DNA of 64,000 bases, taken from an uncultured Verrucomicrobiae bacterium (GTDB lineage Bacteria > Chlamydiota > Chlamydiia > Chlamydiales > Rhabdochlamydiaceae). Location of the stretch: NCBI GenBank assembly GCA_963818965.1, contig CAWFUG010000008.1, positions 256,001 through 320,000 on the forward strand, read 5' to 3'. A program made the translations under genes and the position numbers. The notes below the pieces were generated by a model. It ran no database searches. It saw nothing but the letters and a program-made list of their open reading frames with translations, and had not been told where the DNA came from. The first letter of the stretch is position 1. The number at the start of each line of letters is the position of its first letter. Positions 32,491 through 33,966 of this stretch are shown here, piece by piece.

Positions 32491-32520
32491 TTGCCTGAAA
32501 AGGAGCTATTCTCCTATAAT
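32491..32520 (+). promoter_or_regulatory. Sigma66-type promoter of the brnQ leader
   Basis: TTGCCT-18-TATAAT about 250 nt upstream of the brnQ ATG. Confidence 0.6.
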
Positions 32521-32556
32521 CAACACATAAACCAGCCGTTTTGGCGGGATTGCTAA

Positions 32557-32652
32557 ATGAACCACACGTATGAATCTACCTCCTATGGCTTAGATTCCAC
32601 GCTTGCCACCTGTTGTGGGCGAGTCGTGATGGTCGCGCTTACGCGCACTTAA
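32557..32652 (+). CDS. Putative 31-aa leader peptide MNHTYESTSYGLDSTLATCCGRVVMVALTRT
   Basis: Short ORF in the brnQ 5' leader with clustered Val/Met/Leu codons. Confidence 0.5.
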   Translation: MNHTYESTSYGLDSTLATCCGRVVMVALTRT

Positions 32653-32769
32653 AATAGCACTTCTTCCCCGCCACAACTTTTCTCCACACAAGACTCCCCA
32701 AAGACCACAAGAGACCCTTAAGAGACTAGGACCTTCAGCGGGCAAGAGGTGCCAACCGAAGGTACAGGT

Positions 32770-33966
32770 ATGTCAACGCAAGAACAGTCGTTGCCTCAAC
32801 GCAAGATGCAACTATCCAGTCTCTTTACAACAGGATTTGCCCTCTTCTCCATGTTTTTTGGGGCAGGCAATTTAATTTTCCCTCTGATCATTGGAAAATC
32901 GGCCGGCCATAACGTCTGGTTTGCGATTTCAGGTCTGCTACTTACCGCTGTCGCCGTCCCCTTTCTCGGGCTCATATCGATGCTCCTTTTTCACTCAGAC
33001 TACAATCGCTTTTTTGGCAGGTTGGGCAGGATACCGGGACTGCTCCTTCTTCTTCTCTGCCAGCTCATCTTGGGACCTATTGGAGTCATTCCTCGACTCA
33101 TCACGCTCATGCATGCGACAGCAAAACCTTTCCTCTTCGGGATGCCCCTCTTTTGGTTTAGCATTCTCGCAGTGGCGCTTATCTTTGCGTGCAGCTTTCA
33201 GAGAAACCAGTTGATCAAATACTTGGGAGCCTACCTCACGCCTCTTCTCATCCTCTCCTTAGCAGCTCTGCTGTTTTTTGGCCTCACAAGCGGTTCCTTT
33301 GGCCCCATCTCCACCTCTGCTTCAGATAGTTTTCTGCAGGGCTTAATCGGAGGCTACAATACGATGGACCTGATTGCAGCGTTTCTCTTTGCCACCGTTG
33401 TCCTTCCCCATTTTCAAAAAAGGGCGGAATCAGAGCATCCCAGCCAGAGAAAAAATACCCTTTTCAAGGAGATAGTTTTTTCCAGCAGCATCGCAGCAGC
33501 TCTGTTACTTTTGACTTATGTGGGGCTCTGCTTGATCTCAGCGCGCCATGGATGGGCCCTGGATCCTGCTTGCCCGGCCGAAGGAATGCTCACTGCCATT
33601 GCGCTTAAGTTACTGGGCCCCACAGGCAGCTTGATCGCAGCGATTGCTGTCATTACAGCCTGCTTAACGACGGCGATGACACTTACATCGATTTTCGCCG
33701 ACTACTTGCGCAAAGACGTTTGCAAGGAGAAGATTAGCCCTACTGGGGCGCTTGCTTTTACGCTACTCGTCACGACGCTCTTTGCCAACTTGGGCTTCGG
33801 GGGGATCTCTGCCTTCCTCGCCCCTATTTTGCAAATCGTCTACCCAGGTTTGATTCTGCTAGCTACCCTGAACCTCTTCCATGCTCTCTATGGGCATCAG
33901 ATGGTCCGCCTTCCCGTGTTCTCCTTCCTGACGGGCTCCACCATCTTTTATTTGGTTCAGATTTAA
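32770..33966 (+). CDS. brnQ: Branched-chain amino acid transporter (LIVCS family)
   Basis: GFALFSMFFGAGNLIFP, IPR, GYNTMD, ACLTTA, YP motifs. Confidence 0.93.
   Translation: MSTQEQSLPQRKMQLSSLFTTGFALFSMFFGAGNLIFPLIIGKSAGHNVWFAISGLLLTAVAVPFLGLISMLLFHSDYNRFFGRLGRIPGLLLLLLCQLILGPIGVIPRLITLMHATAKPFLFGMPLFWFSILAVALIFACSFQRNQLIKYLGAYLTPLLILSLAALLFFGLTSGSFGPISTSASDSFLQGLIGGYNTMDLIAAFLFATVVLPHFQKRAESEHPSQRKNTLFKEIVFSSSIAAALLLLTYVGLCLISARHGWALDPACPAEGMLTAIALKLLGPTGSLIAAIAVITACLTTAMTLTSIFADYLRKDVCKEKISPTGALAFTLLVTTLFANLGFGGISAFLAPILQIVYPGLILLATLNLFHALYGHQMVRLPVFSFLTGSTIFYLVQI

Follow-up and report, generated by a model that had tools for sequence, protein, structure and literature searches.

A conserved leader open reading frame with covarying helices before a chlamydial brnQ gene: a candidate ribosome-operated, valine-responsive switch

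The gene for a BrnQ-family branched-chain amino-acid carrier in an uncultured member of the Rhabdochlamydiaceae is preceded by a leader that, on balance, is probably a ribosome-operated switch turning brnQ on when charged valine tRNA is short. Judged by the sequences compared here, the leader is a real conserved leader-ORF element tied to brnQ. It contains a short open reading frame (ORF) with a valine-rich codon run, and strands that pair into alternative helices, one of them over the brnQ Shine-Dalgarno (SD) region. Taken together, the readings in which a ribosome on the leader operates an attenuator are very likely to include the right one. Leader-peptide attenuation is a textbook principle, and ilvL, ivbL and leuL are its classical branched-chain examples in E. 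coli.

LOCUS AND FEATURES

The window is the whole stretch of DNA analysed, 64,000 nucleotides of contig CAWFUG010000008.1 (positions 256,001 to 320,000; GenBank assembly GCA_963818965.1). Positions below are those of the window, and the features are:

32434..32469, found on both strands by the terminator scan: intrinsic-terminator-like hairpin 3′ of typA
32491..32520, plus strand: sigma-70-type promoter-like site TTGCCT-18-TATAAT (score 10/12)
32532..32547, plus strand: short 5′ hairpin H1, which overlaps with the leader ribosome-binding site (RBS); 91% paired, covariation not beyond shuffles
32538..32555, plus strand: segment 1, the ribosome-binding region of the leader ORF; second partner of B and 5′ arm of the predicted OFF helix
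32557..32652, plus strand: 31-codon leader ORF, ending in GRVVMVALTRT and a stop
32563..32634, plus strand: fold P2, nested helices within the ORF, joining the Val codons to its 5′ part; covaries
32623..32634, plus strand: regulatory codon run GTC GTG ATG GTC (Val Val Met Val); conserved Val columns
32635..32646, plus strand: hairpin P3 (GCGC-UUAC-GCGC), located at the ORF end; 81% paired, without significant covariation
32655..32677, plus strand: segment B, the switching strand, with ON partner C and predicted OFF partner segment 1
32678..32685, plus strand: U/C-rich tract directly 3′ of B; tail of 1:B in the OFF state, paired with 32722-32729 in the ON hairpin
32731..32736, plus strand: anti-SD, 5′ arm of the hairpin closing over the brnQ SD; covarying helix
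32738..32752, plus strand: segment C, partner of B in a long hairpin and, when B is away, inner part of the SD-closing hairpin
32758..32763, plus strand: brnQ SD region, identified by sequence and by its covarying anti-SD helix
32770..33966, plus strand: brnQ, branched-chain amino-acid carrier (PF05525, E 7.9e-62)

All elements that the earlier note on this DNA named are found at its coordinates. The upstream neighbour is typA (TIGR01394 match over cut-off), and the hairpin at its end likely insulates the leader against upstream transcription. The note had named a promoter, and a candidate site is present as it described, with TTGCCT at 32491-32496, TATAAT at 32515-32520 and 18 nt between them. 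This is the sole sigma-70-like site within 32000-33000; since shuffles yield 0.5 +/- 0.6, the site by itself is not beyond chance. A promoter-like counterpart scoring at least 8/12 lies at a similar distance, 8-15 nt 5′ of the first hairpin, in 18 of the 22 homologues described below. The same note held that a proximal brnQ start downstream of the ORF would speak against attenuation, and no second promoter-like site was found there.

The brnQ product scores 221.9 bits against TIGR00796, under its 243.4 cut-off, and brnQ is the single match of its kind in the assembly. Its ATG (32770) is invariant among leader-bearing homologues. Neither ilvC nor ilvD was found in the assembly, which is 88% complete; the absence of these matches together with the single brnQ match fits control of uptake.

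One RNA run (X1) holds two short contigs identical to the window, at 32779-32948 (within brnQ) and 34176-34353, and three other RNA runs gave only short cross-matches, in typA. None of the RNA-run contigs covers the leader, and as they lack ends and levels and possibly include DNA, they are uninformative on attenuation.

DISTRIBUTION OF THE LEADER

A BrnQ search gave matches in 48 of the 129 genomes of the family. The orthologue set was formed from 24 loci with at least 55% identity and a usable start; two close matches (L006 and L050) were excluded, no start being found. A homologous leader precedes 22 of these 24 closest orthologues, while L048 and L049 have no leader upstream of brnQ. In a quick BrnQ tree all 22 leader-bearing genes fall in one branch, along with two leader-less genes. 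The leader travels with brnQ, because the gene upstream differs among the 22. The earlier note had called for conservation in related chlamydiae, and the ORF and its Val run are kept in these 22 loci, across which the B:C and anti-SD:SD helices covary.

A covariance model of the 3′ half of the leader, run on the 129 family genomes with 25 candidates scored per genome, returned the same 22 places, which are its own training sequences, and three weak opposite-strand echoes. It finds one leader copy in the source genome, where a genome-wide search revealed no further copies. A regular-expression scan of the genome gave no match and likewise missed the known brnQ leader. When 815 upstream regions were scanned more loosely, four matched, and only at brnQ does the run agree with the function of the gene.

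THE LEADER ORF AND ITS CODON RUN

The 31-codon ORF claimed by the earlier note is present, and its frame is open in all 22 homologues, at lengths of 26-31 codons and with ATG as the start in 21 and TTG in one. Its TAA occupies one alignment column throughout and is in frame in 21; in L033 a 1-nt deletion falls in the last ORF codons, and a stop still comes 4 nt later. Every indel located 5′ of the last Val codon preserves the reading frame, having a length divisible by three. The two alternative frames have internal stops in 22/22, in part through shared ancestry. Of the codon differences that involve a single base, a fraction of 0.36 is synonymous in the ORF frame, compared with 0.18 and 0.31 in the other two. 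The coding signal is thus modest, which would be expected where the peptide itself does not matter. The peptide matches no Pfam or NCBIfam family. Its last four codon columns vary freely, with no conserved C-terminal residues beside the stop; near the N terminus certain residues (E, S) hardly vary.

Across the 22 leaders, the four run columns hold 87 codons, including 60 for Val, 9 for Met, 3 for Leu and 2 for Ile (74/87 for these four amino acids together). The third base of the fourth Val codon varies (GTC 13, GTT 4, GTA 1). Sensing of Met is possible but would be secondary, at 9/87 run codons. Because GTG codons of the run pair with the 5′ part of the ORF in P2, conservation of Val is not independent proof of sensing and may be partly structural.

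ALTERNATIVE HELICES

The native leader folds no better than its shuffles (z = -1.35), so the case beyond chance rests on homologues. The 22 genomes are related, and the shuffle values given here, as counts out of 500, thus overstate significance.

The long-range B:C helix put forward in the earlier note is supported. Its B stretch, 32657-32671, follows a 4-nt spacer after the leader stop, and the duplex is worth -22.9 kcal/mol. In the alignment 88% of its cells are paired and 7 of 14 pairs are doubly changed (0/500 shuffles on score), three of the double changes tracing to one branch (L004/L047). B:C forms the base of one long hairpin in 22/22 leaders, within which the U-tract pairs with GAGA..AAAG in most (88% paired, covariation not beyond shuffles).

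The same note had set against B:C a helix of ACCTTC (32731-32736) with GAAGGT (32758-32763), worth -7.4 kcal/mol. This anti-SD:SD helix also covaries (72% paired; 0/500 shuffles on score and on per cent paired, and not significant, 229/500, on the count of pairs), and the hairpin and B:C are mutually exclusive. Read by eye, the local folds rank the C:SD hairpin first in 11/22 leaders, and in several others C closes a different helix over the start region.

Segment 1 is the predicted second partner of B, so that mutually exclusive helices would share strands: B with segment 1 or C, and C with B or the SD. The 1:B duplex is worth -17.2 kcal/mol, and in 18/22 leaders it is stronger (p<0.05) than the duplexes B makes with other upstream windows. 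When ribosome-free transcripts ending at the U-tract are folded, the leader RBS captures at least 5 nt of B in 21/22. Covariation of 1:B is borderline, at 32-43/500 on three measures, with two further measures not significant. Double changes occur at two columns on separate branches (C-G to U-A and U-A to A-U), and one of them coincides with a broken B:C pair.

A different upstream partner for B, inside the ORF, had been suggested before: GTTGTGGGCG (32612-32621) with CGCCACAAC (32669-32677), which at -10.7 kcal/mol is chemically possible in the source genome. We rejected it. The helix tested in that region lacks covariation (225/500), the duplex reaches p<=0.05 in 6/22 leaders, and the in-ORF strand takes at least 5 nt of B in only 1/22 truncated transcripts, and 0.0 nt in the source genome.

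Within the ORF, P2 is 89% paired with 10/20 pairs doubly changed and 0/500 shuffles on score, for a structure derived from the same alignment. P3 is the counterpart of the GUGCGC...GCGCAC hairpin of simpler chlamydial brnQ leaders (see below). Together P2 and P3 are predicted to fold the ORF into the loop of 1:B, which would explain the conserved internal fold.

FOLDING WITH A RIBOSOME ON THE LEADER

In PMC4833913 the ribosome is described as covering 12 nt past the A-site codon; our mask at +18 takes that figure. The earlier note had asked for footprint-constrained folding, and the outcome depends on how it is done. With the whole leader at equilibrium and a mask that reaches +13 as counted from the P site, the median cost of opening the brnQ RBS is 3.6-4.6 kcal/mol in all states, and the RBS flips at the stop only in the source genome and L042 (2/22); such scans showed no general RBS switch across the 22. 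With only the RNA 3′ of the ribosome folded, the RBS is more than 1 kcal/mol harder to open with the ribosome at the stop than on the Val run in 7/22 leaders at +15, 17/22 at +18 and 20/22 at +21, and easier in none of the 22 at +18. In whole-leader folds, median B:C probability at +18 falls from 0.98 (Val stall) to 0.04 (stop), yet pairing of the SD to the anti-SD part of C is seen in only 7/22 leaders at +18 and 9/22 at +21. The proposed sign, with a stall at the Val codons as the ON state, holds in the predicted folds. The idea that a ribosome at the stop masks B works in most leaders at about +18, but in few at +15 or +13, and such masking would last only as long as the ribosome dwells there.

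Consequences of losing B:C can be seen without a ribosome. Once B is taken away, C occludes the RBS to a greater extent than its shuffles in 20/22 leaders (p<0.1 in 10). Forbidding B:C in the free leader makes the RBS more than 1 kcal/mol costlier to open in 16/22; in the source genome the cost goes from 4.7 to 12.3 kcal/mol. Across all folding settings, closure of the RBS is seen in 16-20/22 leaders under some and in 2-10/22 under others. At equilibrium the full-length free leader favours B:C, by a median gap of 3.8 kcal/mol (<2 in 8/22). Because B:C is the lower-energy state, the OFF state would depend on folding order.

A CANDIDATE MECHANISM

How the leader ORF is translated, where ribosomes stall, in what order the RNA folds and what the output is are parts of a model, which in our preferred form would run as follows. 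Under valine shortage, a ribosome would come to a halt on the Val run and cover the 3′ strands of P2 and P3, so that the ORF could not bring the leader RBS beside B; B would pair with C as C is transcribed, and the brnQ SD would remain open. When valine is plentiful, the ribosome would complete the ORF and depart, the ORF would fold and the leader RBS would capture B, in a helix that can form before C exists. C, thereby freed, would form the hairpin over the brnQ SD. Since 1:B would also block re-initiation on the leader ORF, both ORFs would be shut. The OFF state possibly adds termination.

An extended form of this model joins two tiers: 1:B as a terminator whose loop is the whole folded ORF, and B:C against C:SD as a gate on translation. 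A stalled ribosome, merely by occupying the ORF, would prevent termination, and the gate would then act on transcripts that read through. We regard this form as unlikely. Under it, the leader would be an elaborated member of phylum-wide Val/Ile leaders on chlamydial BrnQ importers.

ALTERNATIVE EXPLANATIONS

A translational output, as the earlier note had it, is one candidate. In the OFF fold there is also a helix with a U-run behind it, as well as a strand rich in C and poor in G, and each suggests another output for the same sensor. Intrinsic termination at the U-tract could be the main one, with B:C and C:SD acting on read-through only. In 19/21 truncated folds with 1:B, the helix is followed by a U-tail of the kind the terminator scan looks for (at least 5 U in 8 nt, 0-2 nt from the helix end), the gap from 1:B to UUUU is 0 in the source genome, and the U-run is among the best-conserved parts of the 22 leaders. 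We nevertheless think this improbable: the loop is of about 100 nt rather than 3-8, the scan finds no plus-strand terminator in the leader, in 14/21 folds UUUU begins 4-9 nt further on, the source genome has only 4 consecutive U, and pairing with the downstream GAGA..AAAG also explains conservation of the U-run. Intrinsic termination is compatible with the preferred reading and does not exclude it. Alternatively the output could depend on Rho, with B:C hiding a pyrimidine-rich loading strand that full translation of the ORF exposes. Pyrimidines make up 58-79% of the post-stop strand, in which C (13-27) outnumbers G (1-6), the fall in B:C from Val stall to stop would unmask it, rho is in the genome, and the simpler leaders carry an unpaired pyrimidine tract without a partner helix; moreover, unmasking of Rho sites under uORF control is established elsewhere (PMC12360218). 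The strand is, however, 42-69 nt long and at least 60 nt in only 1/22, against an optimum of 60-90 nt given in PMC12360218, though shorter sites can work. The predicted OFF fold also re-pairs B, with segment 1, and a Rho route does not need the anti-SD covariation. We regard it as quite improbable.

The wiring of the earlier note differs in the OFF state, which would arise only through a stop ribosome masking B or through the in-ORF:B helix, the leader RBS being uninvolved. The constant place of the UAA in 22/22, with B beginning 3-9 nt past it in 21/22, suits such masking, as do the harder opening of the RBS in 17/22 leaders and easier in none when 12 nt are masked past the A-site codon, and the flip of the source genome already at +13. 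Yet only 7/22 respond at +15 and 2/22 at +13, in-ORF:B lacks covariation and captures B in 1/22, and no lasting OFF state would outlive release of the ribosome, so this wiring seems to us very doubtful. It is harder still to credit that charged tRNA is not sensed at all, the leader being a ligand- or protein-binding RNA or encoding an arrest peptide, with Val codons kept for RNA structure. Pairing of the Val codons inside the covarying P2, the modest coding signal and the almost invariant N-terminal E and S would fit such a leader. Against it, indels preserve the frame, the fourth Val codon is variable at its third base, leaders that have no P2 also carry Val or Ile runs, and the C-terminal residues vary freely, as those of TnaC and SpeFL do not. 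Nor does the leader come near any Rfam gathering score: a riboswitch or T-box, of which the 3′ end of the leader is reminiscent through words found in SAM and lysine riboswitches, was rejected since the hits at positions 31500-33500 (E<=10) and at 12 loci (E<=1) were unrelated and far under these scores.

SIMPLER LEADERS BEFORE OTHER CHLAMYDIAL brnQ GENES

A second brnQ clade was assembled from 22 loci, with identity to a second BrnQ protein as the sole criterion of choice; the scoring left out G151. In 19/22 an ATG-started ORF ends in GTG CGC...GCG CAC, and of the 95 codons preceding the hairpin 43 are Val, 38 of them GTC. Because these leaders lack P2, their Val runs support sensing independently of it. 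A strict motif for the simple leader has 9 matches in 185,579 species genomes, 9/9 of them before brnQ; a relaxed motif has 34 matches in 31/401 genomes, with 23 of 30 examined loci before brnQ. The form with Val leader, hairpin and pyrimidine tract is widespread before other chlamydial brnQ genes. Two brnQ paralogues have an Ile run and an altered yet still paired hairpin; the pattern for this Ile variant has 21 matches in the 401 genomes, one of them before brnQ. Family-level searches around two distant genomes took in 1 and 3 genomes.

The simpler leaders share with ours the order of Val run, GC hairpin at the ORF end, stop, pyrimidine tract and brnQ. They differ in that 1:B, B:C and the anti-SD helix were not detected, and they belong to other BrnQ branches. 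Their pyrimidine tract pairs with the leader RBS in 0/19 and with the brnQ RBS in 3/19. Common ancestry with the leader studied here is plausible; the quick BrnQ tree cannot decide.

COMPARISON WITH KNOWN ATTENUATORS

The brnQ leader appears to work like a leader-peptide attenuator but to miss the local terminator of the ilvL/ivbL type and the codon:SD pairing of the Ms5788A/LEU type. Shared with ilvL and ivbL are a short uORF, a Val/Ile/Leu run near its end, alternative helices and a predicted stall-ON sign. In contrast to them, the plus strand of the leader has no local terminator (a short GC stem, a loop of 3-8 nt and a U-run), the gene controlled is an importer rather than a biosynthetic operon, and the predicted OFF helix uses the leader RBS and spans the ORF, with a covarying anti-SD hairpin following. 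Comparable motifs are noted in PMC10272879 for Corynebacterium ilvB-II and ilvB-OMG and for Leptospira ilvB.

Stalling on the run is predicted here to free a downstream SD, and this is shown for the mycobacterial polycysteine sORF Ms5788A (10.1101/834739). Ms5788A and the actinobacterial LEU element (PMC1262725) also have an ORF of about 30 codons some 100 nt upstream, but in both of them the regulatory codons themselves base-pair with the SD of the gene. In the brnQ leader the Val codons find their partners inside the ORF, and the SD is reached via two relay helices (1:B and B:C). For the LEU element, PMC1262725 reports regulatory-codon mutants that did not follow the prediction of classical attenuation.

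The Rho attenuators built on uORFs (mgtL-mgtA and corL-corA of Salmonella, tnaC, speFL/orf34, and cruR of Bordetella) resemble the brnQ leader in that ribosome position reshapes a C-rich leader (PMC12360218, PMC6386406); in the brnQ leader, too, a pyrimidine-rich strand with more C than G would be masked or unmasked by ribosome position. According to the same sources, speF combines Rho control with long-range occlusion of an RBS, and several such attenuators control transporters. The brnQ leader differs from them in that its signal would be the charging of Val-tRNA, its strand is mostly <60 nt, and it has no conserved arrest motif.

IMPLICATIONS

No description of a chlamydial brnQ leader was found in the literature searched, in agreement with the earlier note, most subscription work, including comparative attenuation surveys, falling outside its coverage. 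The one annotated chlamydial cis-acting leader peptide that PMC7755916 discusses, trpL, was unvalidated and atypical-looking according to that paper. In C. trachomatis growth is limited by valine uptake via BrnQ, and valine reverses the growth block caused by Leu, Ile, Met or Phe competing for BrnQ (PMC11140210, citing Braun 2008).

Chlamydiae take branched-chain amino acids from their hosts, and a conserved, covarying leader before an importer gene offers a concrete, cheap test case for ribosome-based nutrient sensing in the phylum. The identity of the run, Val or Ile, predicts the amino acid to which each BrnQ paralogue would answer. If the helix formed by the leader RBS is indeed the OFF switch, the design would be unusual, in that the sensor and the gene it controls would be shut together.

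Distribution of brnQ and its leader

In the family of the source genome (f1, 129 genomes), the unit of brnQ plus main leader is patchy, being found for example in 5 of the 19 genomes of genus g43 and 1 of the 6 of g14, and its neighbour genes vary from genome to genome. This patchy spread with varied neighbours suggests that gene and leader have repeatedly been lost or transferred together. A close brnQ homologue in genome G040 (locus L006) was matched as two pieces with internal stops, apparently through a frameshift; the main leader, in the form shared by the 22 orthologues, is absent before it.

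The window holds the following downstream of brnQ:
34035-34580, + strand, 181-aa ORF 3′ of brnQ, weak match to a MarR-type helix-turn-helix (E 0.0034)
34598-34921, both strands, overlapping short ORFs on opposite strands with the common words DVTQKLAIGP and SNGQLLSHVGY

A 178-nt contig in RNA run X1 is identical to part of the 181-aa ORF. The shared words point to a putative inverted repeat of some length.

Other leader types

A simpler leader form occurs in many chlamydial families (brnQ upstream regions L012, L094-L112, L124-L132 and L137-L163). A U/C-rich ORF with Val codons, mostly GTC, at its end runs into a GUGCGC...GCGCAC hairpin and then the stop; an unpaired pyrimidine tract closes the leader, 50-150 nt from brnQ. 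A partner helix was looked for in these leaders and none was found. Our guess is that they are under Rho-dependent control.

The leader ORF of L013 (genome G034; ..NVVVLIPLFAQ*) stops 76 nt 5′ of brnQ and is followed by a GC-rich region that differs from other leaders, possibly making it a third type.

Similar motifs precede other genes. In family f20 (L134 and L135), a GUCGUGCGC...GCGCGC hairpin motif lies in intergenic DNA that lacks an in-frame ATG, ~150-160 nt upstream of a gene that looks like hisS from its N-terminal sequence; in L135 a second, partial copy follows the first. At L162 (genome G100), a Val-rich ORF (..FFVVLTVVRS..), with the hairpin and pyrimidine tract of the simpler form, precedes a sodium:dicarboxylate symporter family gene (PF00375; ORF 215-1519, - strand). 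This Val-rich leader hints that the carrier may import branched-chain amino acids.

Isoleucine in the leader run

One of the 22, L045 (genome G093), is shortened, lacks the P3 hairpin at the ORF end, and reads T-I-I-V in its four-codon run; it is possibly re-tuned towards isoleucine. Ile-run leaders (..IIGS*) lie ~50-80 nt 5′ of brnQ in G039 (L093/L170) and G146 (L090), with a hairpin altered yet still paired, plus a C-run. A second brnQ in G039 (L027) bears a Val leader; the paralogues may therefore sense different amino acids.
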